Shown here piece by piece: positions 14,150 to 31,000 of a stretch of 64,000 nucleotides of DNA (position 1 is its first letter; every line of letters begins with the position of its first letter). The notes beneath the pieces were generated by a model. The model was not told the DNA's origin. It ran no database searches and saw only the letters and a program-made list of their open reading frames with translations. This DNA comes from an uncultured Chloroflexia bacterium. GTDB lineage: Bacteria > Chloroflexota > Limnocylindria > Limnocylindrales > CSP1-4. Both the position numbers and the translations under genes were made by a program. The DNA is taken from assembly GCA_963813535.1 (NCBI GenBank), contig CAWEZH010000003.1, positions 896,001 to 960,000 of the forward strand. The letters run 5' to 3'.

Positions 14150-14209
14150 CGTAGCGTGGGGCGACCGGACGCGCCGCCGGGCGTCGGTACTGGTACCCTC
14201 CGCGCCAGC

Positions 14210-14884: not shown

Positions 14885-15807
14885 CGCCGGCCGGCGGACC
14901 GACGCCGGACAGCTCGGTCTCGACGCCCGCCGAGATCGATGCCGCCCTCGACGCACTCGTCGGGGCTCGACCGCCCCTGCTCCTCGTCATCGATTTCGAT
15001 GGCACGCTGGCGGTCGGGTCGCGCGACCCCGCGGTCGCGCGGATCGAGCCACTCGCCCAGCGGGCGCTTCGCCGGCTGGGCGGCCGAGCGACCGGCCATC
15101 AGAACAGGCTCCACGTCGCCGTGCTGACCGGACGGGTCGTCGCCGACGTCGCGGCACGGGTGCGGGTCGGCGGGGTCGAGTACCTCGGCGACCACGGTCT
15201 CGAACACGGCCGGCTTGCGCGTGGCGCGCGGGCGGAGCGGCTGGTCGTCACGACCGACCCGGCGTTCGACGTCCATCGCGATCCGGCGGAGACCCTGGCC
15301 GACGGCGTCGCCGGGGAGCTCGGCTCGCCGGCCTGGCTGTTCGTGGAGCGCAAAGGGCCGTCCGTCGCCTTCCACGTCCGCCAGGCCGACGACGTCCAGG
15401 CCGCGCGGAGTGCGGTCGTCGCGGCGATCGACGCCGTGGAGCGCCGGATGGGGCTCGTCCACGGGCTGGCGCACTACCGCGGTCGATCCGTCGTCGACCT
15501 TCGACCGCGCGAGGCGGGCGGGAAGCGCGAGGCCGTCGATCGGCTGGTCGACCGCCACCGCCCCGGCGCGATCGCCGTCCTCGGCGACGAGATGAGCGAC
15601 ATCGATGCGTTCGAGGCGGTCGTGGCTGCCCGCACGGCGTCGACGGGTGGGGATCCGGTCGTGGGCGTCACGATCGCGGTCCACGGCGCCACGCGGCCGG
15701 CACCGTCCGAGCTGCTGGCCGTTGCCGACCTGCGGCTGTCTGGCGCCCACTTGGTCGGACGCTGGCTGGCCGCACTCGCGCGCCGATTGGACGCGGACGA
15801 CCGCTAG
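14881..15807 (+). CDS. otsB: Trehalose-6-phosphate phosphatase (HAD)
   Basis: IDFDGTL, LTGR, YLGDHGLE, ERK..VAFHVR and GDEMSDIDAF motifs; GTGA overlap. Confidence 0.82.
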   Translation: MTPAGGPTPDSSVSTPAEIDAALDALVGARPPLLLVIDFDGTLAVGSRDPAVARIEPLAQRALRRLGGRATGHQNRLHVAVLTGRVVADVAARVRVGGVEYLGDHGLEHGRLARGARAERLVVTTDPAFDVHRDPAETLADGVAGELGSPAWLFVERKGPSVAFHVRQADDVQAARSAVVAAIDAVERRMGLVHGLAHYRGRSVVDLRPREAGGKREAVDRLVDRHRPGAIAVLGDEMSDIDAFEAVVAARTASTGGDPVVGVTIAVHGATRPAPSELLAVADLRLSGAHLVGRWLAALARRLDADDR

Positions 15808-15810
15808 CGG

Positions 15811-17307
15811 CTATCCGGGGAGGGTGGAGATCGCGGCCGCGGCGCCCTTCACGATGTCGAGCAGTGGCGTGGGGACGAGACCGAAAAGGATCGTGAGCGC
15901 GGTCGCCGCCGCGAGCCCGCCCCACAGCAGCGCGCCATGACTGGGGGCCGGAGCGTCGCTCTCCGGGTCGCGCATGTACATGTACACCGCCACGCGGAGG
16001 TAGTAGAAGGCGGCGGCCGCCGCATTCAGCACGACCAGGACGGCGAGCGCGGTGAGCCAGCCGCCCGCCTGCACGGCAGCCAGGATCACGTAGGCCTTCG
16101 CCCAGAACCCGGCCAGCGGCGGGATCCCGGTGAGCGACAGCAGGAAGAGCAGCATCAGCGCGCCGAGCAGCGGCTCGCGGCGCCCGAGCCCGGAGAACGT
16201 CGCGAGCCCGGACGTGACACCGGTCCGCTTCTGGAGCGCAGCCACCACGGCGAACGCGCCGAGGTTCATGAACGTGTACGCCGCGCCATAGAACAGCAGC
16301 CCCTGCAGCCCGAGCACCTGGCCACCGGCATAGGCGGCCAGCCCGACCAGCATGTAGCCGGTGTGGGCGATCGAGCTGTACGCCAGCATCCGCTTCACGT
16401 TGTCCTGGGTCAGTGCCACGAGGTTGCCGACGGTCATCGTGAGGGCGGCCAGCACCATGATCACGGGCAGCCACCAATCGGACAGCGGTCCGAGCGCCTC
16501 GACGAACAGTCGCAGGATCAACGCGAACGCGCCGACCTTGGGGCCGACCGACAGGTAGCCGGTGATCGGCGTCGGCGAGCCCTGGTACGCGTCGGGTGTC
16601 CAGTAGTGGAACGGGACTGCCGCGATCTTGAAGGCGACGCCGGTCGTCAGGAACGCGAGGCCGATCGCCAGCCCCGGCTGGAGCGGTGCGGCACCGGCGA
16701 CGATGGCCTGCAGCCACTGCGCGATGCCCGGACTCGCCGGGTCGTTGCTGTTGATCAGCGTGGTGCCGGTCAGGCCCCACACGAAGGCGAGGCCGAAGAG
16801 GAAGATGGCCGAGCTGAACGAGCCGAGCAGGAAGTACTTGATGGCGCCCTCGGTCGAGTAGGCGTCGGTCTTGTGGTAGCCGGCGAGCAGGTAGCCGGGC
16901 AACACCATGAGCTCGAGTCCGAGGAACATCAGCAGCAGGTCGGCCGCGCCGGCGATCAGCATCGCGCCGGTCATCGCGAAGACGAGCACGATGGCGAACT
17001 CGGCGATCGGCAGATTGCGTGGTAGCAGGTAGTCCGGTGCGAATACGATCGTCATCGCCACGATCGAGATGAACAGCACGTCGAGGAACGTCGTCAGCGC
17101 ATCGACCTTGTACGAGCCGCCGAACGCGGTGGCCGTCTCCGCCCCGACCGAGATCGTGACCAGGGTCGTGATGGCGAGCCCGATCAGCGCGGTCGCGATG
17201 GCCGGCCCGTCGCGTCCCGGCCATACGAGGTCGACGATCAGGATCGCTGCCGCGGTCAGCACCGCGGCGATGAGCGGCGAGATCGTGACGAGATCGGCGA
17301 AGTTCAA
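15811..17307 (-). CDS. nuoN: NADH-quinone oxidoreductase subunit N
   Basis: EGAIKYF, FKIAAVPFHYWTPDAYQGSPTP, KRMLAYSSIAH and SLTGIPPLAGF motifs. Confidence 0.95.
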   Translation of the reverse strand: MNFADLVTISPLIAAVLTAAAILIVDLVWPGRDGPAIATALIGLAITTLVTISVGAETATAFGGSYKVDALTTFLDVLFISIVAMTIVFAPDYLLPRNLPIAEFAIVLVFAMTGAMLIAGAADLLLMFLGLELMVLPGYLLAGYHKTDAYSTEGAIKYFLLGSFSSAIFLFGLAFVWGLTGTTLINSNDPASPGIAQWLQAIVAGAAPLQPGLAIGLAFLTTGVAFKIAAVPFHYWTPDAYQGSPTPITGYLSVGPKVGAFALILRLFVEALGPLSDWWLPVIMVLAALTMTVGNLVALTQDNVKRMLAYSSIAHTGYMLVGLAAYAGGQVLGLQGLLFYGAAYTFMNLGAFAVVAALQKRTGVTSGLATFSGLGRREPLLGALMLLFLLSLTGIPPLAGFWAKAYVILAAVQAGGWLTALAVLVVLNAAAAAFYYLRVAVYMYMRDPESDAPAPSHGALLWGGLAAATALTILFGLVPTPLLDIVKGAAAAISTLPG

Positions 17308-18959
17308 TGCGCGCCTCCGCCCTCGACGACGGCAACGCCGGATTCGCGGCGACGGGCCGTCGCGACCACGATGGTCCTCCCCAGCACCAGCAGGATGACG
17401 AGACCGAGAGCGCCGACGACGACCTCCGGCCCGACCGCGATGGCCTGGCCGCCCCGAGCCGCCGCCAGCACCTCGATGACCGAGCCCTGGACAAGCGTCA
17501 ACAGCAGTCCGGGCTGGACGCCGAACACGACGATGAGGGTCGCGAGCGGCACCAGCGTGAGCAACTCGATCGGCGTGATGTCGGTCAGGCGACCGCCCAG
17601 ATCGGCCAGGAACTCGGACAGCTCACCGAAGACCACCCGCTGGTACATGAACAGCAGATAGCCAGCCGCGAGGATCATGCAGAACGTGGCGATCGCCGCC
17701 GCCGCGGGGCTCACGAGGAACGTCCCGACGAGACTCAGGAACTCGCCCACGAACCCCGACAGGCCGGGCAGGCCCGCCGACGCGAACACGAAGAAGCCCA
17801 TCACCGCGGCCCACACCGGGGTTCGCGCCGCAAGCCCACCCATCTTGGCGATCGTCCGGTCGTGGGTGCGCTCGTAGATGACCCCGACCAGCAGGAAGAG
17901 CCCGCCCGTGATGAGGCCGTGGTTGATCATCTGGAGGATGGCGCCCTGGACGCCCTGCTCGGTGAACACGAAGATGCCGAGCGTCACGAAGCCCATGTGG
18001 CTGACCGACGAGTACGCGACGAGTCGCTTCAGGTCGGGCTGGACGAGCGCCACGATCGCGCCGTAGATGATCGCGATCAGCGAGAGCACGATGATCGTCG
18101 GCGCGAACGTCACCGCCGCGTCCGGGAACAGCGGGAGCGCGAAGCGCAGGAACCCGTACGCCCCGAGCTTGAGCAGGATGCCGGCCAGGATGACCGAGCC
18201 CGCCGTCGGCGCGTCGGTGTGCGCGTCGGGCAACCAGGTATGGAACGGGAACATCGGGACCTTGATCGCGAATGCGAGGAAGAACGCCAGGAATGCCCCG
18301 ACCTGGAGCGCCGGCGCGAACCCGGCCCCCGCGGCGAAATCGCGGAGCGCCACGAAGTCGAAGGCGTTCGTCCAGGTCCCGGTCGTGGACTGGTAGGCGA
18401 ACGCCGTGGCCAGGATCGCCACCAGCATCAGCAACGACCCGACGAGCGTGTACAGCACGAACTTGATCGTCGAGTAGATGCGGTTCGCGCCACCCCAGAT
18501 CCCGATGATCAGGTACATCGGGACAAGCACGATCTCCCAGAAGATGTAGAAGAGGAACAGATCCAGGGCGAGGAAGACGCCGATCATCCCGACCTCGAGG
18601 ACGAGGAACGAGATCATGTATTCCTTGATGCGGGTCTGGATCGGGACCCACGACGCGAGGATGCAGATCCATGTCAGCGTCGTGGTCAGCACGACCAGCG
18701 CCGCCGACAGGCCGTCGGCGCCCAGCTTGTACTGGATGCCGAACACGGGGATCCAGTCGTAGGCCTCGACGAACTGGAACTGGCTGCCCGCGCGGCCCGG
18801 CAGGTAGTCGACCAGCATGACCAGCGACACGACCCAGGCCGCCAGCGCGAACCCGAGCGCCACCGGTCTCGTCCAGCGACTGGGCAGGATCGCCACGACG
18901 AGCGCGCCGATCAGCGGCAGGAAGGTGATGAGCGTCAGGATCCCGAACGGCAGGGTCAT
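17304..18959 (-). CDS. nuoM: NADH-quinone oxidoreductase subunit M
   Basis: FYIFWE, KVPMFPFHTWLPDAH, LKLGAYG and DLKRLVAYSSVSHMG motifs. Confidence 0.95.
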   Translation of the reverse strand: MTLPFGILTLITFLPLIGALVVAILPSRWTRPVALGFALAAWVVSLVMLVDYLPGRAGSQFQFVEAYDWIPVFGIQYKLGADGLSAALVVLTTTLTWICILASWVPIQTRIKEYMISFLVLEVGMIGVFLALDLFLFYIFWEIVLVPMYLIIGIWGGANRIYSTIKFVLYTLVGSLLMLVAILATAFAYQSTTGTWTNAFDFVALRDFAAGAGFAPALQVGAFLAFFLAFAIKVPMFPFHTWLPDAHTDAPTAGSVILAGILLKLGAYGFLRFALPLFPDAAVTFAPTIIVLSLIAIIYGAIVALVQPDLKRLVAYSSVSHMGFVTLGIFVFTEQGVQGAILQMINHGLITGGLFLLVGVIYERTHDRTIAKMGGLAARTPVWAAVMGFFVFASAGLPGLSGFVGEFLSLVGTFLVSPAAAAIATFCMILAAGYLLFMYQRVVFGELSEFLADLGGRLTDITPIELLTLVPLATLIVVFGVQPGLLLTLVQGSVIEVLAAARGGQAIAVGPEVVVGALGLVILLVLGRTIVVATARRRESGVAVVEGGGAH

Positions 18960-20947
18960 CCGCGGTTCCCGGCGAGCAGCAGGTAGGAGCCGGCCATGAC
19001 CAGCAGACCGATGGCGATGCCAAGCGCGTAGTTCTGGACATGGCCCGTCTGGACGCGTCGGATACCGCGGCCCGCGCCGACCGTCGAGCTGCCGATGGCG
19101 TTGACGGTGCCATCGACGACCTCACGGTCGAACCACCAGATCGCCTGGGCGAGCCGTCCGCCGATGACGATGAACAGCAGGTGGTAGAGCTCGTCGAACC
19201 ACCACTTGTTGAGGGACGCGCGGTACAGGAACGCCAGACCCGGCCGCGCGCTGACTTCGCGCACGACCTCGGGCCGCGCGGGCAGGTGGATCCCGCCGAT
19301 GTCGAGGCCGAACAGCCGCCATGCGAGGACGAGGCCGATGACCGCGACGGTCACGCTGGCCAGGATCAGCCCACCGTCGACGCCGAACAGCTGGTACTCC
19401 TCGTGGGGCAGGTGGAGCAGCTCGGTCGCCTCATGGAAGACCGGCTCGAGCCACTCGTGCAGCCGGCTGTCGCCCAGCGGGGTGCCGAGCAGCAGCCCCA
19501 GGAGCACCGACGGGATAGCCAGCAGGATCAGCGGCACGGTCATGACCGCCGGCGACTCGTGGATGCGATCCCAGATCTCCTTGGGGCCGCGGAAGACGCC
19601 CCAGAACGTCAGGCCCATGAGCCGGAACATGTAGAACGCGGTCAGCAGGGCGACGAACAGGCCGATCCCCCAGACCCAGTAGAAGCCGAACTTGAACGCC
19701 TCGCCGAGGATCTCGTCCTTCGAGAAGAAGCCTGCCAGGGGCGGGATGCCCGAGATGGCGATCGAGCCGATCAGCATCGTCACGTAGGTGATCGCGATCT
19801 TCGGCGCCAGTCCACCCATCCGGCGCATGTCCTGCTCCTCGTGGACCGCGTGGATGACCGAGCCGGAACCGAGGAACAGCAGGCCCTTGAAGAAGCCGTG
19901 GGTCATGAGGTGGAAGATCGCGGCCGTGAATGCTCCGACCCCAAGGGCCGCGAACATGTACCCGAGCTGTGACAGCGTCGAGTAGGCGAGGACCCGCTTG
20001 ATGTCGGTCTGGGTCATCGCGATCGAGGCGGCCAGGATGGCCGTGAATATCCCGATCGCCGCGACCACGACCATCGCCGACGGCGCGGCCGCGAACAGCG
20101 GATTGGCGCGGGCGACCAGGTACACGCCGGCGTTGACCATCGTCGCGGCGTGGATCAGCGCCGACACCGGCGTCGGGCCTTCCATCGCATCGGGCAGCCA
20201 CACGTGGAGTGGGAACTGGGCGCTCTTGCCCATCGCCCCGGCGAACACGAGCAGGGCGACGATCGGCACGGGGATCGGGAAGGCGACGAGCGTCGGGTCG
20301 AGCATGATCTCGATCGAGTGGCGCACGTCCAGGGTCCCGGTGTTCAGGAAGATGGCCATGATGCCGAGCGCGAAGCCGACGTCACCGACGCGGTTGACGA
20401 TGAACGCCTTCTTGGCGGCAAGCGCCGCGGATCGCTTCCGGTACCAGAAGCCGATGAGCAGGTAGCTCGACAGTCCGACCAGCTCCCAGGCGACGAACAC
20501 GACCAGCCAGTTGTCGGCCAGGACGAGCAGCAGCATCGAGAACATGAACAGGTTCAGGTACGCGAAGAACCGCCAGTAGCCCGGGTCGTGGGCCATGTAC
20601 CCGATCGAATAGACGTGAACGAGCAGGCCGATCGTCGTCACGACGATCAGGAGGCAGGCCGTGAGCGGGTCGACGAACAGGCCGAGGGTCACCTGGAAGC
20701 CACCGGCCGGGATCCACGTCCACGGCCCGACGGCGTAACCGTGGAGATCCTCGGTGCCCTCGATCAGCGGGGCCGTACCGGTCAGGACGTTGACCACGGC
20801 GACCATCGCGATGATCCAGGCGATGAAGATGACGCCGACGGGGACCCAGTGGGCCTGCTTCCCGAGCCGCCGCCCGACGAGCGCGGTGAACAGGAAACCC
20901 GCCATCGGCAAGACGAGCAGCAGCGGCAGCAGCCCTTCGATCGTCAC
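18956..20947 (-). CDS. nuoL: NADH-quinone oxidoreductase subunit L
   Basis: GKSAQFPLHVWLPDAMEGPTPVSALIHAATMV, HGFFKGLLFL and QTG.VQNY motifs. Confidence 0.97.
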   Translation of the reverse strand: MTIEGLLPLLLVLPMAGFLFTALVGRRLGKQAHWVPVGVIFIAWIIAMVAVVNVLTGTAPLIEGTEDLHGYAVGPWTWIPAGGFQVTLGLFVDPLTACLLIVVTTIGLLVHVYSIGYMAHDPGYWRFFAYLNLFMFSMLLLVLADNWLVVFVAWELVGLSSYLLIGFWYRKRSAALAAKKAFIVNRVGDVGFALGIMAIFLNTGTLDVRHSIEIMLDPTLVAFPIPVPIVALLVFAGAMGKSAQFPLHVWLPDAMEGPTPVSALIHAATMVNAGVYLVARANPLFAAAPSAMVVVAAIGIFTAILAASIAMTQTDIKRVLAYSTLSQLGYMFAALGVGAFTAAIFHLMTHGFFKGLLFLGSGSVIHAVHEEQDMRRMGGLAPKIAITYVTMLIGSIAISGIPPLAGFFSKDEILGEAFKFGFYWVWGIGLFVALLTAFYMFRLMGLTFWGVFRGPKEIWDRIHESPAVMTVPLILLAIPSVLLGLLLGTPLGDSRLHEWLEPVFHEATELLHLPHEEYQLFGVDGGLILASVTVAVIGLVLAWRLFGLDIGGIHLPARPEVVREVSARPGLAFLYRASLNKWWFDELYHLLFIVIGGRLAQAIWWFDREVVDGTVNAIGSSTVGAGRGIRRVQTGHVQNYALGIAIGLLVMAGSYLLLAGNRG

Positions 20948-21035: not shown

Positions 21036-21353
21036 TCACTGGCGCATCGAGTCGTATTCGTCGACTAGCGGGGTCTTCTTGTTGCGATAGATCGCGATGA
21101 CGATCGCCAGGCCGACGGTCGCCTCGGCGGCTGCGACGGCCATGACCATCAGCGCGAAGACCGCGCCCTGGGCTGTCGCGTCGGCGCGTGGCCCGAACAA
21201 TCCGAACGCCACGATGCTCAGGTTGACCGCGTTCAGCATCAGCTCGATCGACATGAGCATGCTGATGGCGTTGCGCCGCGCCAGGAACCCGAACGAGCCG
21301 ATGGCGAACAGGATCCCGGACAGGATCAGGTAGGTGTCGAGACTGTCGCTCAC
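21036..21353 (-). CDS. nuoK: NADH-quinone oxidoreductase subunit K
   Basis: [14 protein letters not shown] and [11 protein letters not shown] motifs. Confidence 0.95.
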
Positions 21354-21943
21354 GACGGCCCGCCAGGCTCGCGCTTCGCCAGGAAGATGCCGCCGATCAC
21401 CGCGGCGAGTAGCAGCACGCTCACGATCTCGAACGGGAACACGAACTGCTGGAACAGGACGCGCGACATGATCGACGTGCCGAGTCGAGCGTGGCGCGCG
21501 GCCTCACCCCAATCGGTCGCGCTGACCGCCAGGGCGATGACCACGGCGATGACGATCGCCGCGATCGATGCGGGCCCGGCCTGGGTCTGGAACACCAGCC
21601 GGCTCGGGGCGTCCTTCGTCTGCGTGAGCATGATCGCGAACAGGATCAGGACACTGATCGCGCCGATATAGATGATGACCTGGGCCGCGCCGAGGAGCGC
21701 GACGCCCATCAGGACGTAGATCCCGGCCAGGGCCATGAAGCAGACGATCATCGCCAGACCGCAGCGGATGATGTCGCGCATCGTCACGACCAGCAGACCG
21801 CTGAAGATCATCACCGCCGCCAGGATCCAGAGCAGGACGTCCTCCCAGTCCTGGTGTAGGGCGATGAGCATCAAGGCGGCGACCCCGAAGACCGCGCCCA
21901 TGAGCAGGAGCGCGAGGATGATCTGGGGGAGCTTCGCGAGCAC
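21350..21943 (-). CDS. nuoJ: NADH-quinone oxidoreductase subunit J
   Basis: [19 protein letters not shown] and [15 protein letters not shown], plus an extra N-terminal hydrophobic helix. Confidence 0.9.
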
Positions 21944-21945
21944 GG

Positions 21946-24594
21946 CTACTCGTGATGGCCGGGCCCGAGCGCGGCGACCGCGCCGTGCCCGTCATGGCCG
22001 TGTCCGTCGTGGCCATTGCCGTTCGGGCGGCCCGGCGGGAGCCCAGTTATCGTCGGTGGGAGGACCGGCAAAAGGCGAGCCGGGTCGTATACCCGGCCCT
22101 CGGCCTGCGCCCTGCTCAGCCAGTCGCGTTCGCGGCGGATATAGGTGACCTCGGTCTCCTTGTCGATCTCGGCGAGGGCTATCAGGTCGATGATCGGCTC
22201 GGACCGGCCGGTGTGGGCGAGCTCGAAGTCGGCGCCGTCGCGCAGGGCGTCGTACGGGCACGCATCCACGCAGATCCCGCAGAGGATGCAGCGGCTCTCA
22301 TCGACCTCGTACTTCTCGAGGATGCGCGGCTTCGGCATCAGCGCGCCGGTCGGACACGTCTCCGCGCAACGCCCGCACGACACGCACGGTGTGTCGTTGA
22401 GGCTCATGTCGAGCGGGGTCGTGACCAGCGTGTCGAAGCCGATCCGCATGAAGTCGTAGCACGCGGCGCCGACGACCTCTGCGCACACGTTGGCGCAGCG
22501 CCCGCAGTCGATGCAGCGCGACGGCTCGCGCAGGATGAAGGCGTGGGAGTCGTCGCGGATGTAGTCGTGGTTGATGCCGGTGAACCGGTTCTCGGTGACC
22601 GAGCGGTAGCCGGCCCCCTGGTGGTGCTGCGGCTCGAGCGTGGCAAGCGTCGTCGAGTACTCGATGCCAAGGCGTCGGAGGTCGCAGAAGCCGATGGCCT
22701 CGCAGGTGCACTGCAGGCAGCGGGTCGACTCGGCCATCGCGGCTTCGCGGGTGTACGGGAGCTCGTATTCGATGTAGCTGTGATTGCGCTCCTCGGCCGG
22801 TAGTGGCGTCAGCCGATAGCGGGGTTCCTTGATCTCCGCGGTGAACGGCACGATCGACAGGAACTCGGGCTGCGGCTCGGCGAGCGTCTGGCGGGTCCTG
22901 ATCGCGTCCAGGTCCATGCCCTTGAGGTAGGCGTCGACGGCGTACGCCGCGCGGCGGCCCTCGGCCACGGCCTCGACCACGGTCGCGGCGCCGATGCGGA
23001 CGTCGCCCGTACCGAAGACGCCGGGCCGACCGGTCGAGAACGTGACGGCGTCGGCCTTGAGCCGACAATTCTTGGTCGGCTCGACACCCTCGTTACCCGG
23101 CGCGCCGACCCAGTCGAGCTCCGGGCCCTGGCCGATGGCAAGCAGCACGCGATCGCAGGGGATCGTGAACTCGGTGCCCGACGCAGGCTCGGGTCGCCGC
23201 CGGCCGGACGCGTCCGGTTCGCCGAGCTGCATCCGGATGAACTCGACACCCGTGACCTTGCCCGTCTTCTCGTCGACCAGGACCCTCGTGGGACCGGCCT
23301 GGAAGATCGCCGTCACGCCCTCCTCGATCGCCTCGTGCACCTCGTCGGCCGCCGGCATGTCCTTCATGTCGCGCCGATAGACGAGGGTCACCTCGCTGGC
23401 GCCCTGGCGGACCGACGTCCGCGAGCAGTCCATCGAGGTGAACCCGCCGCCGATGACCACGACGCGCTTCCCGGCGTGGCCCGGATAGGGCAAGCCGAGC
23501 GTGGCCGTGCGCAGGTACTCGAGACCGTCGATGACGCCGTCGGCGTCCTCGTTCGGGATGCCGAGCTCATTGGTGTCGTAGCAGCCGATCGCGATGACGA
23601 CCGAATCGAAGCCCTGGTTGGTCAGGTCGTCGAGCGTGAAATCGCGACCCAGACCGGCGTCACACACCATCTTCGCGCCGAGCCGGACGACCGACTCGTA
23701 TTCCGCCTCGAGCACCTCGACCTTCGGCAGCCGGTACTGGGGGATGCCGTAGCGGAGCATGCCGCCCGGCGCCGGGTCACGCTCGAAGACGGTGACCTCG
23801 TGGCCGGCGATGAGCAGGTAGTAGGCGGCGGCCATGCCGGCCGGTCCGGAACCGATGACCGCGGCCCGCCGGCCGGAGCCGACCTGCTGCTCGAACGGGA
23901 CCGGCGGATCGACGCCGTCGTCGAGCATCGACTTGAGGACCTGGTCGCCGGCATAGCGGTGCGTGTCGCGGATGGCGATCGCCTCGTCGACCTCGTCGCG
24001 CCGGCAGTGCTCCTCGCACGGCGCCGGGCAGACCCGCCCGAGGACCGACGGGAACGGGATCGTCCGCTTGAAGATCCGTGTGCTCTCGCGCCAGTTCCCC
24101 TCGGCGTTGGCCTTGAGGAAGCCCGGGATATCGATGTGACTCGGGCACTTGTTCTGGCACGGCGGGAGGCAGTACGCGTTGTGGTCCGAGAAGATCAGCT
24201 CGAGGTTGGTGCGCCGCAGCCGACGGACCTCCTCGGTCTGGGTCTGGACCTTCATCCCGTCCTCGCAGGAGCGCGAGCACGAGATCGGCGGGTGCTCCTC
24301 GCCCTCGACCTCGACGACGCACATCCGGCACGCGCCGAAGCCCGGCAGCTTCGGCTCGTAACACAGGGTCGGGATCTCGATGCCGTTGTCGCGGCAGACC
24401 TCGAGGATCGTCTGACCCTCGAAGCCCTCGACGACGCGGCCATCGACCTCGATCCGGATGCGCGGCGTCGACTGTGGTCGCTGCGGCGACTGCGTGTCGA
24501 GCAGGCGTTCCGCGAGCGATGCGCGGGTCGTCGCCGGTGTCGATGCCTCGATCTCGGCGGGTCGGCCCTCGGGGCGGGCGAGGGTATCGGTCAT
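21946..24594 (-). CDS. NuoG-N/GltD-like (StnC/SfrB-like) FAD-FeS NAD(P)H oxidoreductase carrying the C-terminal half of NuoI; in-frame with the upstream NuoF-like region in this assembly
   Basis: IPTLC..GACRMCVVE..SC ([2Fe-2S]); H..YCLPPC...CP, GRVCPAPCE..C, GSGPAG, GGMLRYGIP, GGGFTSMD, VYRR, RCLQCTC, CIDCGRC and CVSCGRC..CP; then YEVDESRCILCGICVDACP..FE. A likely internal ATG at 24594 has GAGG upstream. Confidence 0.85.
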   Translation of the reverse strand: MTDTLARPEGRPAEIEASTPATTRASLAERLLDTQSPQRPQSTPRIRIEVDGRVVEGFEGQTILEVCRDNGIEIPTLCYEPKLPGFGACRMCVVEVEGEEHPPISCSRSCEDGMKVQTQTEEVRRLRRTNLELIFSDHNAYCLPPCQNKCPSHIDIPGFLKANAEGNWRESTRIFKRTIPFPSVLGRVCPAPCEEHCRRDEVDEAIAIRDTHRYAGDQVLKSMLDDGVDPPVPFEQQVGSGRRAAVIGSGPAGMAAAYYLLIAGHEVTVFERDPAPGGMLRYGIPQYRLPKVEVLEAEYESVVRLGAKMVCDAGLGRDFTLDDLTNQGFDSVVIAIGCYDTNELGIPNEDADGVIDGLEYLRTATLGLPYPGHAGKRVVVIGGGFTSMDCSRTSVRQGASEVTLVYRRDMKDMPAADEVHEAIEEGVTAIFQAGPTRVLVDEKTGKVTGVEFIRMQLGEPDASGRRRPEPASGTEFTIPCDRVLLAIGQGPELDWVGAPGNEGVEPTKNCRLKADAVTFSTGRPGVFGTGDVRIGAATVVEAVAEGRRAAYAVDAYLKGMDLDAIRTRQTLAEPQPEFLSIVPFTAEIKEPRYRLTPLPAEERNHSYIEYELPYTREAAMAESTRCLQCTCEAIGFCDLRRLGIEYSTTLATLEPQHHQGAGYRSVTENRFTGINHDYIRDDSHAFILREPSRCIDCGRCANVCAEVVGAACYDFMRIGFDTLVTTPLDMSLNDTPCVSCGRCAETCPTGALMPKPRILEKYEVDESRCILCGICVDACPYDALRDGADFELAHTGRSEPIIDLIALAEIDKETEVTYIRRERDWLSRAQAEGRVYDPARLLPVLPPTITGLPPGRPNGNGHDGHGHDGHGAVAALGPGHHE

Positions 24595-25887
24595 CGAGGC
24601 GGCCTCGGGGGCGACCGGTGTGGGTCGGCTGGCAGGGTCGAAGGCGGACTCGAAGTATCGCATCCCACTCGTGAGCGGGAGCGTCGCCAGCCGCTCGTGG
24701 TCGCATAGCGCCGACGCGACGATGTCGTGGCTGAGGTCCGCGGCGAGCTGGCCGTCGGCCGGCCGGAGCAGACCGGCTTCGCGCCGATCGACGATCTCGG
24801 CGAGTCGCTTGGTCCCGATCCGACACGGGATCGACTTGCCGCACGCCTCGTTCGCGCAGAACCGGGTCAGCACCCCGACGAGCTCGAGGAGGTCTGTGCG
24901 GTCGTCGACGACCACGAGCGACCCGGATCCGAGATGGGCACCGGCCGAGCGCAGGCTGTCGAACTCATACGGCGTGTCGAGGGCATCGGGTGGCAACAGC
25001 CCGCCCGATGGCCCGCCGATGAGCACCGCCTGCATCGAGCGCCCGTCCGGCAGCTTCCCGCCGAGCTTGAGCACCTCGCGCAGCGGCGTGCCGAGCGGGA
25101 CCTCGGCCACGCCGTCCTTGCCCGGCGTGCGGATCTGGACCAGCACCGTGCCGGGCGCGTGGGTCGAGCCGGTGGCGCGGAACGCGTCGGGTCCCTGCCG
25201 CAGGATCCACGGCACGGCGGCGAGGGTCTGGACGTTGTTGACGACGGTCGGTCGATCGAACAGGCCGACCTCGGCCGGGTGCGGCGGTCGCTGCTCGGGC
25301 TGGCCCCGCTTGCCCTCGAGCGCCTTCAGGAGGACCGTCTCCTCGCCGAGCATGTAGGCGCCCTGCACGGGGCGGACCGAGAGCCACAGCTCTCGGCCGG
25401 AGGCGAGGATGTCATCGCCGAGGAACCCGGCGTCGGTGGCGTGGCCGATGGCGGTCGAGAGGGCGGCGATGACCTCGGCATCCTCACCGCGGACGGCGAT
25501 GAAGGCTTCTGTCGCGCCGATCGCGGTGGCGGCGATGGCCGTGCCCTCGATGACGGCGTACGGGTCCCGGAGCATCAGGGCACGGTCCGTGTGCGAGGCG
25601 GGATCGGCGCCGTAGCCGTTGGCGACGACGTAGCGCCTGTCCGCCTCGGTCGAGGCGGCCGTCCGCCACTTGTCGCCGGTCGGATAGCCGGCACCACCGC
25701 GACCGCGAAGTCCGGACGCGCTGATGACCGCGATGGTCCCTGCGCCGCCGAGGTCCCGCACGGCCCGTTGGAGCCCCTCGAAGGCGCCATCGGCGACGGC
25801 GGCATCGAGATCCGTGGGGTCCCTGACGTCGGCCCTCGCCAGCAGGATGCGCGGCCAGGCGGCCGGCGTCCGCAGGATCGTCACCAT
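24595..25887 (-). CDS. nuoF: Degenerate NuoF-like (51 kDa FMN-binding) subunit; runs without a stop into the downstream GltD-like region
   Basis: SGLRGRGGAGYPTG.KW, GAYMLGEET.L..LEGKRG.P, PTVVNNVQTL, GGPSGG and EACGKSIPCRIG motifs. Confidence 0.8.
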
Positions 25888-25888
25888 G

Positions 25889-26566
25889 TCAGGCGCGGGC
25901 CGGCGCGCCCGGGCGACCGCCTCCCTCGAGCGCGGCGCCGAGCGCCTCCACGTAACTCGATTCCGATGGCCGGTGCCGCTCGACCGCGGCGGCCTGGTCG
26001 GTGGCCGTCGGCGGCTCGAAGCGCAAGTGCGCGTAGTAGGTCGCCGTCCCGTAGATCATCGCGTACCACGCACCCGTGGCGTGACTGATGCGCTTGAGCG
26101 CCGCGACCGGCAGGTAGCCGTACGCCGTCTGGGTCGCCTCGAGGATCTCCAGCATGCGCGCGGGGTCGTGGTCGAAGTCCACGAGGATCCGGTCCACCTC
26201 GGCCATGTCGATCGGGTGGTACGGGCTGAATGCCGGGTCGGGTACCGGTCGGCCCGATCGGCGCAGGGCCAATTCCTCGCGCCGCTCGCCATACGTCTCG
26301 GGGGCGCCCCAGTGGACGTGGTAGCGGCCGCGGGTATCGATGCCGCCCATGTCGATGCACTCGATCGGGCAGGCCTGGGCGCACTGGAAACACGTCTCGC
26401 ATTTGAGCGTGCCCCATTCGTCGTAGAGCAGCTGGAGCCGCCCGCGGAACTTGCTCGCGACCTCGGCGGGCACCTCCGGGTACATCACGGTGGCCTTGGG
26501 CTCGAAGAAGCGCCGAAGCGTCAGCGCCATGCCCTTGGCGATGCCGAGACCGGGGATGAAGGTCAT
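25889..26566 (-). CDS. Fusion of the NuoI N-terminal half (single CxxCxxCxxxCP) with the NuoE N-terminal helical domain (no 2Fe-2S domain)
   Basis: GMALTLR..T.MYPE..FRG..KCETCFQCAQACP.ECI, followed by LEILEATQTAYGYLP..AL..I....IYGTATYY. Confidence 0.85.
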   Translation of the reverse strand: MTFIPGLGIAKGMALTLRRFFEPKATVMYPEVPAEVASKFRGRLQLLYDEWGTLKCETCFQCAQACPIECIDMGGIDTRGRYHVHWGAPETYGERREELALRRSGRPVPDPAFSPYHPIDMAEVDRILVDFDHDPARMLEILEATQTAYGYLPVAALKRISHATGAWYAMIYGTATYYAHLRFEPPTATDQAAAVERHRPSESSYVEALGAALEGGGRPGAPARA

Positions 26567-26569
26567 CGC

Positions 26570-27917
26570 CTACCGACCGATCACGACGATCGCCGCCGCC
26601 GTCACGAACAGGTTGAGCAGCGATGCCGGCAGCAGCCACTTCCAGGCGAAGCTCATCAGCTGGTCGATGCGGACTCGCGGCAAGCGTGCCGCGCATCCAG
26701 ACGAACGTGAACACGAGGGCGTACGTCTTGAGCATGAACCAGAGGATACCGGCGACCCACGGCAGCCCGATGAACGCCCACGCGCCGACCAGCGCGACGA
26801 TGAACAGGTTGGCCAGCACGAACCCGGCGAGCAGCGCCTGCCACCACTTGATGCTCGAGCGCAGCAGCCAGAACGGGGCCCCGAACAGGAGCGTCAACAC
26901 GACTGGCGCGATGCCCACGATGAACAGCAGCCCGATGTTGAACGACGCCGGGTCGAGGCTCAGCTGGACCTGCCATGCCTCGGGCAACGCGAACGGCGCA
27001 TTCCATCCGCCGAGGAACAACGTCACGAAGAGCGCCGACACGATGAACACGTTCACGTACTCGGCGAAGAAGAAGAACCCGAAACGCATGCCCGAGTACT
27101 CGGTCGCGAAGCCGGCGACGATCTCGGAGTCGGCCTCGGTCAGGTCGAATGGGGTCCGGTTCGCCTCCGCGGTCGCCGCGATGAAGAAGATGAGTGCGCC
27201 CAGTGGTTGCTGGAAGATGTACCAGTCGGTGAACCAGCCTTGCTGGTTCTCGACCAGCGTGTTCAAGCTCATCGTCCCGGCCAGCAGCAGCAGTCCCACG
27301 ACCGACAACGCGAGCGGGATCTCGTAGCTCACAACCTGCGCCGCGGCTCGCAGGCCGCCCAGCAGCGAGTACTTGTTGTAGCTCGACCAGCCGGCCATCA
27401 ACAGGCCGACGACGGACAGGCCGCCGATCGCGAAGAAGTACAGCAGTGCGAGGTTGAGGTCGTAGCCGAACAGGCCCGGCGCGAACGGGATGACCAGCAG
27501 CGTCAGGACGCTGGCCAGGTACACGACCACCGGCGCCCAGGTGAAGACGACCGAATCGGCGCCGGTCGGGGTGAAGTCCTCCTTCATCAGGACCTTCAGC
27601 CCGTGCACCACCGAGAGCAGCGAACCGTACGGTCCGACCCGGTCGGGCCCGATCCGAAGATTCATCAGCGCGATGATCTTCATCTCCATATAGATGATCA
27701 GGAACGCGGTCGGGATGGTCATCAGCAGGATCACCGTCACCGCGACGACGAACCGGACGATCGGCAGATTGGCCACCAGGACGTCGATCACTGCCTGGCC
27801 GAACAGCTGGATCACCAGGATCAGCCCGACCGTGAGCAGGATGAGCAGCGGGACGGCGATGAAGACGACCTTGCCCGGCAGCGTCAGCCGACTCCACCCG
27901 CGACCGATGACCGTCAT
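26570..27917 (-). CDS. nuoH: NADH-quinone oxidoreductase subunit H (1-bp frameshift near 26682, probably an assembly error)
   Basis: RIGPDRVGP, KEDF, NKYSLLGGLR..AQ..SYE and NRTPFDLTEADSE. The C-terminus PRVRIDQLMSFAWKWLLP continues in another frame to a TAG at 26570. Confidence 0.92.
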
Positions 27918-27942: not shown

Positions 27943-28043
27943 GGGGCGAGTCGAGGCCAAGGCGCCGGCGAGCAGGGGAGCGAGCGTAGCCCGAGCTACG
28001 TGAGCGACCCAGCGCAGCCGGCAACGCCGGCATCGGCCGTCCC
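27943..28043. repeat. ~100-bp structured intergenic repeat (REP-like), copy 2
   Basis: Lies between nuoD and nuoH; homologous to 13283-13380 and 47711-47807. Confidence 0.8.
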
Positions 28044-28062
28044 GTGGCGCGCCGGGCGACCG

Positions 28063-29315
28063 TCACTTATCCACTCCGCCCATGATCGGGTCGAGGACGC
28101 CATGACCGCCATCGTGTCCGCGACCAAGTGCCCGGGCATGAGGACGCCGACCGACTGAAGGTGCAGGAACGACGGGTCGTGGATGCGCATCCGGAACGGC
28201 TGGTCGGTCCCGTCGCTGATGGCGTATGTCCCGTACTGGCCGCGCGGCGCCTCGATGCCGACGTACGCGCGTCCCGGACGCGGCCGGAGGAGCCGCGGCA
28301 GCTTGGCCATGATCGGACCGTCCGGCATCTGGTGGAGACACTGGTCGATGATCCGCAGGCTCTGCTTGATCTCGTCCATCCGCAGTAGATAGCGGGCCAG
28401 GCAGTCGCCCTCCGTCCGCGTCGGGATGTCGAAGTCCAGCTCCGGATAGATCGAATACGGGTGCGCGCGGCGCATGTCGAACGGCACGCCCGTCGCCCGC
28501 AGGTTCGGCCCACTCATGGTCATCCGGAGCGCCGTCTTCGAGTCGATCGTGCCCAGGCCCCGCATCCGGCGGACGAAGATCTCGTTCTCGTTGAGCAGCG
28601 CGTTACCGGCCTCGATCTGCTCGGTCGCGTGACCCATCCAGTCGCCGAGCCGGCTCATGAACTCGTGGTTCAGGTCGCCGTTGACGCCGCCGATGCGGAA
28701 GTAGTTGAAGAGCATCCGCTGACCGGTCAGCGAGGCGAGCATCTCGACGATCTCGTCGCGTTCGATGAACGACCACAGGATCGGTGTGAGTCCGCCGAGG
28801 TCGAGTGCCATCCAGCCCAGGAACAGGGCGTGGCTGGCGACCCGGTTCAGCTCGCCAGACAGCACGCGGATGTACTCCGCGCGCCGGGGCACCTCGACGT
28901 CGAGCAGCTTCTCGAACGCCATGACGCCGGGCCATTCGCAGAAGAGGGAGCTGACGTATTCGAGGGGGTCGAGGTAGCAGATCGCCTGGTGGTAATCGGC
29001 GTTCTCGCACAGCTTCTCGACGCCGCGATGGAGGTAGCCGAGGACCGGATCGAGGTCGACGACCTTCTCGCCGTCGAGCTTGAGCACGACGCGCAGCACG
29101 CCGTGGGTCGAGGGATGCTGCGGTCCCATGTTGAGGAACATCTCGCCATCGCGGAGCGTGTAGAACTCGGCCTCGCGCTCGGTCCGCGGCGGGTACGGCG
29201 GGATGGGCTCGAAGACACCCGCGTCCTGGTCGAGCTTGATGCGCGGGTCGTCCGGCGAGCCGGCGAAGAACTCGTCGTGCTGCTGGGCACCGGGCCGGGG
29301 CGTGGTCGTGGTCAT
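28063..29315 (-). CDS. nuoD: NADH-quinone oxidoreductase subunit D (frameshift near 28095, probably an assembly error)
   Basis: NMGPQHPSTHGVLR, GYLHRGVEK and EAPRG. The expected end LDPIMGGVDK* is in the alternative frame ending at 28063. Confidence 0.93.
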
Positions 29316-29334: not shown

Positions 29335-29883
29335 TCACGCGCCGATGCGCCGGACGGTTCCGGCCTTCGGGGTCACGCGTGGCTGTTGGGTGCGCTCCAT
29401 GGGCCGGACGCCGGCACCGGGCGATCGGGCGGCGTCGTCGGCGAGGTAGAAGTCCTTCCGAAGCGGGAAGCTCTGGTAGTCGGGTGGCATGTAGATGCGG
29501 CGCAGGTCGCGGTTGCCCTCGAACGTGATACCGAACATGTCGTACGCCTCGCGCTCCATCCACTCGGCGCCCTTCCACATGAAGGTCACCGATGGGACTC
29601 GCGGATCCTCGCGCGACAGGCCGTCGGCGATGACCCGCAGCCAGTCGGGCGTCGTCGGGCTCCAGAGGTGGTAGACGACCTGCATGACCTCGCCGGTGTC
29701 GACGCCGCACAGGTCGGCGAGGAACTCGAACGCGAATTCGGGTTCGTCGTGCAGCGACGTGATCACGGGCACGACGTCGCCGGCGCCGATCCTGATCTCG
29801 GTCTCGTCATGTCGCTGTCGGACCGGCCCCGTCAGCTGCTCACCGAAGCGCCGCTCGAGGCGTGCCTTGAATGCGCGATCCAT
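29335..29883 (-). CDS. nuoC: NADH-quinone oxidoreductase subunit C
   Basis: DLCGVD and W.GAEWMEREAYDMFGI.F.G..DLRRI..P....FPLRKDF motifs. Confidence 0.93.
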   Translation of the reverse strand: MDRAFKARLERRFGEQLTGPVRQRHDETEIRIGAGDVVPVITSLHDEPEFAFEFLADLCGVDTGEVMQVVYHLWSPTTPDWLRVIADGLSREDPRVPSVTFMWKGAEWMEREAYDMFGITFEGNRDLRRIYMPPDYQSFPLRKDFYLADDAARSPGAGVRPMERTQQPRVTPKAGTVRRIGA

Positions 29884-29885
29884 GA

Positions 29886-30644
29886 TCAGACTTCGGCGGG
29901 GACGGTCGGCCCGATCGGCCGCTCGGGCCAGTGGCCGCGCCGATCCTTGATGAGTTGCTGCAGCTTCATCATCCCGAAGATGAGCCCCTCGGGCCGCGGC
30001 GGGCAGCCGGGCACGTAGACATCGACGGGCATGACCCGGTCGATTCCCTCGACTGTCGAGTAGCTCCGCTTGTAGCGGCCCCCCGAGCACGTACAGTCGC
30101 CCATCGCGACGCACCACTTCGGCTCGGGCATCTGCTCCCAGAGACGGACCAGCGGGCCGGCCATCTTGGTGGTGAGCGTGCCGGCGACGATGAGCACGTC
30201 CGCCTGCCGGGGACTCGCCCGGAACGGGAACATGCCCCAGCGGTCCATGTCGTTCTTCGACGTCGCCGCGGACATCATCTCGATCGCGCAGCAGGCCAGA
30301 CCGGACAGCAGGGGCCACAGGCTGTTCATCCGGATCAGGTCCAGGACATAGTCAGCCTTGGTCGGGATGACCTCGAGCGGCCCGCTCCACCGGGCATTGT
30401 CCCGACGGGACTCAGCGCTCGCCTCGAGCTCGGCGAGGTGGGTGATGTCGGTCGGCCGGCCACCGTCATAGGCAGCCGGGTCGGCAGCCTGCCACAGCAT
30501 GTTGGGCACGACGATCGGCGAGATGACGTCGTCGGCCGGCCGCTTTGCGGGCACCGGCGGCTGCGACGGGACGTCCGAGGAGATCTGGGTCGCGTCGGAC
30601 GATCCAGCACCGAGCCCGTCGCGGTTGGCCCTTCTCACCGCCAC
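29886..30644 (-). CDS. nuoB: NADH-quinone oxidoreductase subunit B
   Basis: [28 protein letters not shown] and VPGCPPRPE motifs. There is a long N-terminal extension and the start is uncertain. Confidence 0.93.
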
Positions 30645-31000
30645 GTCAGGGCTCCCTTCCGCCAGGCATACGCGAGGCCAAGCAGGAGGATCACGACGAA
30701 CACGACCATGCTGATGAACAGCCCGGCCGGGTTGAGGCTCGGGTCCTTGAACACGATGGCCCAGAGGTAGATGAAGATCACCTCGATGTCGAACGCGACG
30801 AACAGCAGCGCGTAGATGTAGAACGACAGCCCGAACCGTCCGTGGGTATCGCCGTACGTGTCGATGCCCGACTCGTACGGGAGGCCCTTGTGCACGTCGC
30901 CTTTGTTCCGATGGGAGACGAGCCACGCCGCGGCGATCGTCCCGAACACGAACGTCACGCCGGCGAAGGCGAAGCCCACGACGTACCAGAGCTGTTCCAA
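30635..31000 (-). CDS. nuoA: NADH-quinone oxidoreductase subunit A
   Basis: [17 protein letters not shown] and [10 protein letters not shown] motifs. Confidence 0.95.

Follow-up and report, generated by a model that had tools for sequence, protein, structure and literature searches.

We examined a 64,000-nucleotide stretch of DNA, here called the window, from an uncultured soil Chloroflexia bacterium of the class Limnocylindria (CSP1-4; assembly GCA_963813535.1, contig CAWEZH010000003.1, positions 896,001 to 960,000), which carries a minus-strand operon for respiratory complex I (nuo). Embedded in this operon are three consecutive genes, encoding a 225-amino-acid (aa) chimera of NuoI and NuoE pieces, a NuoF-like protein (NuoF') and an 882-aa flavoprotein resembling StnC (StnC', 21946-24594). 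They probably constitute a non-bifurcating complex I input module derived from Nfn/Stn-type enzymes, with one site for NADH at flavin mononucleotide (FMN) and a second for NADPH at flavin adenine dinucleotide (FAD). The architecture is well supported, and we infer the function from homologues: all three genes found their best solved-structure match in subunits of one enzyme, the Caldicellulosiruptor (Csac) NfnABC (PDB 9BOV; PMC11829005), followed by Sporomusa StnC, StnB and StnA. A preliminary description of the 882-aa gene, which saw a Stn/GltD-like flavoprotein in place of NuoG and a candidate NADPH-oxidising complex I, was partly confirmed in its observations and partly supported in its interpretation. 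Beyond it, we found a NuoE remnant, a split NuoI and a NuoF-like FMN subunit between the two NuoI halves.

The features of the module are listed below. Residues of StnC' are numbered along the 1313-aa open reading frame (ORF) of the assembly, in which it is joined to NuoF'.

25889..26566, minus strand: nuoI(N)-nuoE' gene, 225 aa; N-terminal half of NuoI (first CxxCxxCxxxCP motif) fused to the N-terminal helical domain of NuoE
24595..25887, minus strand: nuoF' gene, 431 aa; Pfam Complex1_51K at 55-226 and NADH_4Fe-4S at 340-417; reads through in this assembly
21946..24594, minus strand: stnC'-nuoI(C) gene, 882 aa; [2Fe-2S] domain, GltD-like FAD/NADPH insert, Fe-S motifs, C-terminal half of NuoI and His-rich tail
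24235..24462, minus strand: NuoG/HydA-type [2Fe-2S] domain, residues 476-551; Pfam Fer2_4, E 9.5e-21
22957..24171, minus strand: GltD/NfnB-like insert; Fer4_20 (two-[4Fe-4S]) at 573-652, Pyr_redox_2 at 675-977, TIGR01318 at 575-988
22684..22722, minus strand: post-insert Cys motif RCLQCTCEAIGFC, proposed His/Cys3 (N5-like) cluster with H569
22351..22515, minus strand: ferredoxin-like 2x[4Fe-4S] domain, as in HydA/StnC; motifs A (CIDCGRCANVC) and B (CVSCGRCAETCP); Pfam Fer4_Nqo3 at 1118-1183
22186..22326, minus strand: C-terminal NuoI half; motif C (CILCGICVDACP) and FELAHT.. tail; TIGR01971 positions 71-117 of 121

StnC', a relative of NfnA and StnC

Residues 476-1211 aligned end to end with Csac NfnA (9bov_A residues 4-699, E 6.6e-160); they also aligned with Sporomusa StnC (8oh5_C residues 3-700, E 2.6e-141), and the Nfn entry 9n5u_A was matched at E 5e-140, which bears out the StnC-like insertion pattern first described. 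Identity to database relatives was 36-46%. The NCBIfam model NF009454 (PRK12814, putative NADPH-dependent glutamate synthase small subunit) matched residues 477-1137 at E 4.2e-166, with 554.1 bits over positions 4-630 of 657, below its cut-off of 916. On these scores StnC' shares the PRK12814 architecture class and is not an equivalog. The NuoG profile TIGR01973 was matched only at positions 1-98 (95.7 bits versus a cut-off of 470). The NuoG-type [2Fe-2S] domain and the GltD-like insert that had been read from the translation were both recovered as Pfam domains, and the Pfam scan of the 1313-aa ORF found no molybdopterin domain, as the preliminary description had also stated for the NuoG C-domain. 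The strings it quoted, SDHNAYC (567-573), GGGFTSMD (813-820), VYRR (836-839) and RCLQCTC (1056-1062), all lie in the minus-strand translation.

The Cys pattern of the [2Fe-2S] domain was kept in 12 of 12 aligned sequences from four families. Within the insert, the FAD site reads VIGSGPAG and the NADPH site GGGFTSMD...VYRR; the NADPH-type segment (VVVIGGGFTSMDCSRTS..GASEVTLVYRRDMKDMPA; ..VTLVYRRD.KDMPA..) aligned with that of the NADPH-oxidising Csac NfnA and was kept in four class families, in line with the NADPH-type motif already proposed. The YRR after the second Rossmann GxGxxG of GltD/NfnB folds presumably binds the 2'-phosphate of NADP. Conservation across families also extended to SDH(N/D)AYC.PPC..CP, GRVCPAPCE.HC, the GxGxxG of the FAD site and RCLQC.C, as well as to all Cys of motifs A, B and C and of the NuoI(N) motif. 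C1062 and C1068 were invariant in 11 sequences and the Cys of RCLQC[TV]C were kept in 12; together with H569, this post-insert motif would presumably build one His/Cys3 (N5-like) cluster.

Whereas two 4Fe-4S motifs had been counted after the insert, three CxxCxxCxxxC(P) motifs follow the flavin domain, namely A (1125-1135), B (1168-1179) and C (1200-1211), with Pfam 4Fe-4S (Fer4) motifs at 1161-1216; the third and the tail behind it correspond to the C-terminal half of NuoI. The eight Cys of motifs A and B were invariant in 11 sequences and aligned to the same eight in Csac NfnA. In a FastTree phylogeny of 64 sequences (midpoint root, local supports only, every third long sequence sampled), the eight proteins bearing a NuoI(C) half formed one group with support 93, or 99 once an 816-aa metagenome protein of the same build joined it, and this group was nested among 650-900-aa proteins within the NfnA/StnC radiation.

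Behind the NuoI(C) half, a His/Gly-rich tail (..GNGHDGHGHDGHG..) occupies 21949-22026 on the minus strand. It was seen in close relatives of family f1 only, with none in the aligned sequences of families f2, f3 and f4 or from outside the class, and it may reflect metal binding or low-complexity drift.

NuoF', a subunit of the FMN-NADH type

NuoF' corresponds to the NuoF/BfuB core of the FMN-NADH type, without the Bfu-specific N- and C-terminal Fe-S domains. Its best structures were HydB (8a6t_B) and NfnB (9bov_B), both at E 2.3e-97, and it spans residues 102-513 of 584 in StnB (8oh5_B) and 150-560 of 630 in HydB. Complex I NuoF subunits were matched at E 8.4e-80 or weaker, and the NuoF model TIGR01959 gave 338.2 bits over positions 4-407 of 410, with a cut-off of 558.65. 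The motifs GLRGRGG(A/S/G)G and GE(E/Q)(T/S) were conserved in 12 aligned sequences, and regular expressions recovered them in 70 and 72 of 80 loci, respectively, many of these loci being cut by contig ends. The gene is intact, at 34-78% identity (tblastn segments) across the class and the phylum. The preliminary description had left open whether electrons enter from NADPH rather than from NADH or in addition to it; because NuoF' with intact FMN and GEET motifs lies directly upstream of StnC', the second option is favoured and the first is not.

An extra ..H..L..S.CP.G.C(H/R)P.. segment follows the NuoF' core at loci L010, L011, L018, L019 and L020 (f1), L021 and L023 (f4) and L022 (f3), with none in the window's sublineage or in f2. 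Possibly this segment is what is left of a Zn/Fe-S site of the Bfu type.

NuoI in two pieces

The 225-aa gene lies directly after nuoH and two genes upstream of StnC'. Its residues 9-82 matched positions 13-87 of 180 in the NCBIfam NuoI profile, residues 12-75 matched positions 1-63 of 121 in TIGR01971, and residues 9-71 matched residues 6-68 of Thermus Nqo9. Further along, the NCBIfam NuoE/FdsG profiles matched residues 119-187, residues 118-185 aligned with residues 20-87 of NfnC (9bov_C, E 1.1e-9), residues 14-84 of StnA were also matched, and PF01257 was covered only at positions 2-63 of 145. No [2Fe-2S] domain was found in the protein by profile or PDB comparison; the thioredoxin-like [2Fe-2S] domain of NuoE is gone in f1, and f2 and f4 retain only its first CxxxxC pair.

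The complementary piece forms the end of StnC', whose C-terminal 184 aa matched TIGR01971 positions 71-117 of 121 and whose residues 1188-1230 matched residues 86-128 of Nqo9 (2fug_9, E 2.9e-9). In a PDB search with this piece, polyferredoxins ranked top through repeated motif matches, and the single-stretch matches that reached past its Cys motif were NuoI/TYKY. The two pieces do not overlap (TIGR01971 1-63 and 71-117; Nqo9 6-68 and 86-128), and the likeness to NuoI exceeds the Cys motifs, extending to the N-terminal segment at residues 9-50 and to the FEL..T tail. These matches show a putative NuoI that is split between its two Cys motifs and spread over two polypeptides. As motifs A and B are paired by homology with NfnA/StnC, motif C would have no partner within its own chain, and its only free partner would be the motif of the 225-aa protein. 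An assignment of motifs B and C to one NuoI fold was rejected, because it is A and B together that correspond to the HydA-like domain of NfnA with its eight Cys.

Alignment and modelling gave the following results. A three-sequence MAFFT alignment of a canonical Chloroflexota NuoI with both halves stacked both of them on the second motif, and its informative parts were limited to the N-terminal segment and the FEL tail. AlphaFold2 modelled the 225-aa protein from a shallow 9-row alignment with 10-residue block means of 86-96 at residues 121-160 and 69-75 at 161-190, the NuoE-like helices being the only confident part; the means stayed below 50 in the NuoI half (residues 23-109). The C-terminal 253 aa of StnC' had a mean predicted local distance difference test score of 30, and this model was unusable. 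A complex prediction of residues 1-110 of the 225-aa protein with the C-terminal region of StnC' (A2 55-200) scored 0.25 and 0.29 against a mark of 0.32, in runs made without controls, and counts neither for nor against their pairing.

Distribution of the module

The chimera of NuoI(N) and NuoE' was found in 192 of 201 genomes of the class (eight of them unpublished: G093, G113, G117, G122, G136, G147, G173 and G180) and in 125 of the 127 high-quality ones. By family, it was present in 59/60 (f1), 7/7 (f2), 59/66 (f3), 65/66 (f4) and 1/1 (f5). An intact NuoI was detected in only 4 of the 81 class genomes searched (f1 0/23, f2 0/4, f3 3/26, f4 1/26, f5 0/1), a sample that counts the window's own genome, where none was found, and one unpublished genome, G093. 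The split-NuoI arrangement is class-wide. Among 80 loci, the module was preceded by nuoH in 77 of 77 and followed by nuoJ in 61 of 61. The f4 operon is the same as that of the window; in f3, the module follows nuoB-nuoD, and nuoH-J-K-L-M-N stand apart, without nuoI.

Outside the class, full-length matches occurred in 10 genomes of three other Chloroflexota families in a 301-genome sample. In G259, G331 and G275 (loci L031-L033, L115 and L116), the module forms a cluster of nuoB, I(N)E', F' and StnC'I(C), and the same genomes carry a canonical nuo operon with an intact NuoI; G259, the one examined, also has a nuoA-(C)-D-H cluster apart from these, with no nuoB in it. This points to two isoforms of complex I per cell that differ in their input module. 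The neighbours of the chimera in the ESM Atlas were 'hypothetical' clusters, commonest in Chloroflexota, and the module proteins are named 'FAD-dependent oxidoreductase', 'formate dehydrogenase major subunit' or 'hypothetical protein' in databases. With such generic names, metabolic reconstructions are likely to score the complex I of this class as incomplete.

Operon and genome context

The genes follow one another as nuoA-B-C-D-H-[I(N)-E']-[F']-[StnC'-I(C)]-J-K-L-M-N, and the link to complex I that had been proposed for the StnC-like gene holds at the level of gene position: it lies inside a nuoA-N operon recognised by Pfam. Of the 11-subunit core of complex I, A, B, C, D, H and J-N were identified by Pfam, and NuoI is present as two halves only. 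The remaining nuo genes are as follows.

30635..31000, minus strand: nuoA; Pfam Oxidored_q4, E 3e-30
29886..30554, minus strand: nuoB, 20-kDa subunit with cluster N2; Pfam Oxidored_q6, E 2.1e-26; candidate starts at 30500, 30509 and 30554
29335..29883, minus strand: nuoC, 30-kDa subunit; Pfam Complex1_30kDa, E 1.7e-37
27996..29315, minus strand: nuoD, 49-kDa subunit; Pfam Complex1_49kDa, E 1.9e-80; C-terminal end shifted by a missing base at about 28095
26570..27917, minus strand: nuoH; Pfam NADHdh, E 4.6e-90; broken by an extra base at about 26683
21350..21943, minus strand: nuoJ; Pfam Oxidored_q3, E 1.2e-30
21036..21353, minus strand: nuoK; Pfam Oxidored_q2, E 1.5e-26
18956..20947, minus strand: nuoL; Pfam Proton_antipo_M/N/C
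17304..18959, minus strand: nuoM; Pfam Proton_antipo_M, E 7.5e-78
15811..17307, minus strand: nuoN; Pfam Proton_antipo_M, E 1.2e-67

NuoB contains the Cys pattern CC..C..CP and NuoD the strings HPS.HG and ..EY.., which we take to be the N2 Cys pattern and the quinone-site residues, respectively. The true C-terminus of NuoH (..LPRVRIDQLMSFAWKWLLP..) runs on in another frame to 26570.

Just upstream of nuoA, a protein with the Pfam domain Methyltransf_28 is encoded at 31365-32564 (minus strand), and a protein of this family also adjoins the stand-alone module cluster in f3 (L022, 6362-7717). The family presumably includes the arginine methyltransferase NDUFAF7/MidA of complex I assembly; if so, its position beside nuo or module genes would amount to a linkage with NuoD that has been conserved. 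On the other side of the operon, downstream of nuoN, a 516-aa ORF at 13406-14956 (minus strand) has a weak sortase domain (E 1.9e-6) and overlaps a 554-aa ORF without a family match.

The window's own genome (3.28 Mb in 3 contigs, 92.9% complete) yielded no intact NuoI above the family cut-off, its two best matches being the two halves, and a profile search found no NuoG in the operon or elsewhere in this genome. The nuo operon is the only complex I of the organism. The lack of NuoG agrees with the earlier idea that StnC' replaces this subunit, but the gene occupies the position of nuoI and contains half of NuoI, which makes it more than a NuoG substitute. The sole other NuoE/F set in the genome adjoins a molybdopterin protein. 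This second NuoE/NuoF-like pair lies on contig C3 at about 418.6-424.3 kb with a [2Fe-2S]/4Fe-4S protein (loci L001, L024 and L026-L029), and the match to the molybdopterin-type gene beside it contains one in-frame TGA. The set looks like an NAD-linked formate dehydrogenase, possibly with selenocysteine.

Gene boundaries and frameshifts

The 882-aa gene occupies 21946-24594 on the minus strand. In the assembly, an open frame of 1313 aa runs from 25887 down to 21946 without a stop after the upstream NuoF-like gene, the cause being one extra base at about 24595-24597, just before the ATG of the 882-aa gene. Among the best 120 homologues listed, 119 were 852-929 aa long and one was 1075 aa, and they spanned only 63-67% of the 1313-aa query, that is, its 882-aa part; the preliminary description had therefore delimited a conserved gene. 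In nine relatives whose junction was inspected, the NuoF-like frame stops before, or overlaps, the ATG of the 882-aa gene, and in a survey of 80 species-representative loci, none of the 70 with an examinable junction showed a fusion of nuoF' and stnC'. The nearest relative, L034 (93% nucleotide identity), lacks the extra base at about 24595. Two further indels relative to L034 are an extra base in nuoH (about 26683) and a missing base near the end of nuoD (about 28095), so that three single-base indels lie within 3.5 kb, each shifting a reading frame.

We compared the stretch with Logan contigs from four runs on soil and permafrost, each belonging to a different study; in the sequencing runs carrying the stretch, the shares were all 0.26 or less. 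Near-identical short-read contigs lacked the extra base at 24597 (one each in runs X1 and X3, from two studies) and the extra base at 26682/26684 (one each in X2 and X5), and others had an additional G behind 28094 (one each in X3 and X5). Natural fusion into a 1313-aa protein was rejected, since the base is missing in the nearest relative, in 70 of 70 loci and in two short-read contigs; with the extra base private to the assembly, 24594 is the conserved start. We treated the three frameshifts as assembly errors or private lesions, and they are probably long-read assembly errors.

Fused or read-through versions were also seen in other assemblies: P0069 (1075 aa), G203, G185, G160 and others, and 1 of 73 loci. 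StnC' may be joined to NuoJ, or the I(N)-E' gene to NuoF', and some matches contain in-frame TGA codons. In nuo operons with the StnC' module, the limits of genes are often miscalled or mis-assembled.

Proposed mechanism and its alternatives

In the reading we favour, the NuoI halves would reassemble into the N6a/N6b ferredoxin fold beside NuoB and NuoD. NADH would be oxidised at the FMN of NuoF' and NADPH at the FAD of the GltD-like insert, and both electron paths would merge in the NuoG-like cluster chain of StnC', from which electrons would leave via N6a/N6b and then N2 (NuoB) to menaquinone; protons would be pumped by NuoH and NuoJ-N, the membrane arm being unchanged. The electron route in NfnABC is described as FAD-A7-A6-A3-A2-A1-B1-FMN with the Fdh-like branch as a dead end (PMC11829005), and that in Stn is described likewise (PMC10482914). 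In StnC', NuoI(C) would replace this dead-end branch (towards the FdhF-like domain) and serve as the exit, which leads us to read the module as a Y-shaped input, and the wired FMN-FAD pair could carry NADPH/NAD+ transhydrogenation as a side reaction. Bfu-type bifurcation to ferredoxin was rejected as a function, as C1, the B3/B4 ferredoxin domain and the B2/B5 sites are all missing. Direction and specificity of the enzyme are not readable from DNA.

A fuller account, which we advance tentatively as a real possibility, is that complex I of Limnocylindria has an independently invented N-module, a soluble Nfn/Stn-type enzyme set into a split NuoI. It would then be a proton-pumping NAD(P)H:menaquinone oxidoreductase with two flavins, a transhydrogenase wire, no N1a and probably a three-Cys cluster for N3. 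Cluster N1a has been called strictly conserved (PMC5562879).

Several observations weigh against the favoured reading. The NuoI halves score 48.0 (N) and 62.1 (C) bits, under the TIGR01971 cut-off of 113.05, and the NADPH specificity suggested by YRR rests on homology and on what is known of GltD/NfnB folds. At the first GltD cluster, whose ligand in NfnA/StnC is Lys K170 (PMC11829005, PMC10482914), the alignment places His in StnC' (..AIRD(T/S)HRY..), a putative ligand in place of Lys. In NuoF', the second Cys of the N3/B1 motif is lost: all 71 of the 80 loci that show the motif read CGK[S/T]xPC, with Thr in 41 and Ser in 30; Ala occurs in f4, and f3 retains all four N3 Cys. Cluster N1a/C1 is gone from the module as well, and with both losses, electrons may leave FMN in a changed or impaired manner. 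The genome encodes PntB, so balancing of the pools does not need an NADPH-oxidising complex I. Finally, nuoD, nuoH and the nuoF'/stnC' junction are each frameshifted in the window assembly.

The strongest alternative, which we nevertheless consider unlikely, turns the FAD site into an exit: the complex would act mainly as a membrane-anchored NADP+ reductase or transhydrogenase, fed by NADH at FMN or by menaquinol through reverse flow driven by the proton motive force, and would be a source of NADPH for aerobes that subsist on trace gases or poor substrates. All nucleotide motifs are retained, FMN and FAD are wired together in the Nfn/Stn structures, the homologous Nfn/Stn enzymes are described as reversible and physiologically NADPH-making (PMC10482914, PMC11829005), and reverse complex I is reported in lithotrophs (PMC4453560). 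However, without the C1/B3/B4 clusters there would be no ferredoxin-coupled driving force, and PntB, already an NADP+ reducer driven by the proton motive force, is present. The sequence itself gives no direction, which the potentials of the pools would decide.

Less likely still is that NADPH is the sole real donor and NuoF' a relic kept for structure, with an FMN site that has ceased to deliver electrons to the chain. The loss of the second N3 Cys in f1, f2 and f4 (Ser/Thr/Ala) would fit such a relic, as would the state of the N1a domain, absent from f1 and reduced to half its Cys in f2 and f4. Against a relic stand the conserved FMN and GEET motifs and the persistence of NuoF' as an intact gene across class and phylum. 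Three N3 Cys remain, so that a cluster may be retained, and a CxxXxxC...C pattern with three Cys is typical of [3Fe-4S] sites; in f3, moreover, all four are in place.

We give very little weight to the possibility that the operon is decaying in this genome, in which case nuoD, nuoH and the nuoF'/stnC' junction would be pseudogenic, with the 1313-aa ORF as a by-product. Three frame-altering indels within 3.5 kb speak for decay, but at each of these positions near-identical short-read contigs, one from each of two runs, are unshifted, the assembly, in 3 contigs, is among long-read metagenome-assembled genomes, and the other 9 kb of the operon are intact. Matches to nuoH in more than one frame in 4 of 77 relatives' loci are as expected of assembly errors.

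Least credible is a separate soluble Nfn-like oxidoreductase that merely lies within the nuo operon, its NuoI-like pieces being generic ferredoxin motifs: both halves do score under the NuoI cut-off, the C-terminal piece does find polyferredoxins first, and a four-gene cluster does stand away from membrane genes in other Chloroflexota, but complex I would then have no NuoI at all in most genomes of the class (77 of 81 lack an intact one), the matches reach beyond the Cys motifs, the nuoH and nuoJ flanks are constant, and the stand-alone clusters always come with nuoB, which the partner cluster of G259 lacks.

Significance

In the usual view, NADH enters complex I through a single conserved module, NuoEFG, and the exceptions in its input known to us use ferredoxin, F420 or flavodoxin. 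If the favoured reading of a two-flavin module is true, a second, NADPH-type flavin site would couple the anabolic pyridine nucleotide pool and the proton motive force directly, in a new way. NuoI, a core Fe-S subunit, would be built from two polypeptides, a striking case of modular evolution, and the dead-end branch of Stn/Nfn would become an exit to quinone. With N1a and one N3 ligand missing, the module is a natural experiment on the purpose of these clusters. Limnocylindria are a widespread class, abundant among the Chloroflexota of soil and freshwater, and the split-NuoI module touches the older remark that many Chloroflexi genomes 'lack only NuoG' (PMC4453560). We found no description of this architecture in the literature; supplements (Schut 2022, Table S1; Kumar 2023, Fig. 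S6) may list such proteins.

Comparison with known systems

The closest known systems are StnABC and NfnABC (8OH5, 9BOV/9BP5 and 9N5U), whose three homologous genes have the same functional roles as those of the window module. The [2Fe-2S] domain, the inserted GltD FAD/NADPH domain and the HydA-like clusters of StnC/NfnA are all found in StnC', StnC' and the NADPH-oxidising Csac NfnA have the same NADPH motif, the BfuB core resembles NuoF' and the N-domain of BfuC resembles NuoE'. StnC is described as a [2Fe-2S] HydA-like part (1-101), a GltD-like part (102-565), [4Fe-4S] clusters and an inactive FdhF-like domain (683-1172), which with clusters C1 and C2 is needed for assembly of the Stn tetramer (PMC10482914). 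This last domain is absent from StnC', where the match ends at StnC residue 700 of 1172 and half of NuoI follows instead. The N- and C-terminal Fe-S/Zn domains of BfuB are likewise absent from NuoF', as is the C1 [2Fe-2S] domain of BfuC from the 225-aa protein. C1 is described as part of the B1-FMN-C1 flavobicluster (PMC11829005), and Bfu-type bifurcation as defined by C1, the B3/B4 ferredoxin domain and the B2/B5 sites (PMC9304861, PMC11829005); with C1 and the extra Fe-S domains of BfuB missing, the window module would have no flavobicluster and no ferredoxin site. Unlike Stn/Nfn, it is fused at both ends to NuoI halves and lies inside a nuo operon.

With canonical NuoEFG and NuoI, the module shares an FMN/NADH subunit, the NuoG-type [2Fe-2S] domain, His/Cys and ferredoxin-like clusters, the Cys motifs of NuoI and the accompanying nuoA-D, H and J-N genes. 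Unlike in canonical complex I, it sits inside nuoI after nuoH, with NuoI over two polypeptides. Compared with the canonical N-module, it has no N1a, an N3 short of one Cys, no C-domain of NuoG and an extra FAD/NADPH domain, and by the E values given above, NuoF' is closer to BfuB than to complex I NuoF.

Among membrane-bound systems, Nuo-Bfu and Mbh-Bfu, predicted by Schut et al. 2022 (PMC9304861), are similar in that a proton-translocating complex has a Bfu-related module in place of NuoEFG or in addition to it. They are described as keeping a full bifurcating BfuBC core with predicted use of ferredoxin and NADH, and Nuo-Bfu as described there has no GltD/NADPH domain and no split NuoI; the hosts named are Deferribacteres, Proteobacteria, Planctomycetes, Nitrospirae and Dehalococcoides (PMC9304861). 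Mbx-like operons of Thermotoga and proteobacteria have a gltD-related flavoprotein in the place of NuoI (Degli Esposti 2015; PMC4758237), so that they share with the window module a NAD(P)-binding flavoprotein of the GltD type that takes the NuoI position in a relative of complex I. In that account, Mbx/hydrogenase-type complexes are thought to reduce NAD(P)+ with ferredoxin, and the Mbx-like operons, as described, have no NuoF/NuoE-like partners, StnC-type [2Fe-2S]/HydA clusters or NuoI halves (PMC4758237).

The window module also has a parallel in the way the ABCDHIJKLMN core accepts different donor modules. Eleven-subunit relatives of complex I with other input modules include cyanobacterial NDH-1 and Fpo with FpoF; unlike theirs, the donor module here would be a natural Nfn/Stn derivative, covalently continuous with NuoI. 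Complex I of E. coli has reportedly been engineered for NADPH through variants of NuoF E183. An NADPH-driven, proton-pumping complex I would accordingly be chemically feasible; unlike in those variants, NADPH would enter the Limnocylindria complex at a separate FAD site and not at FMN.

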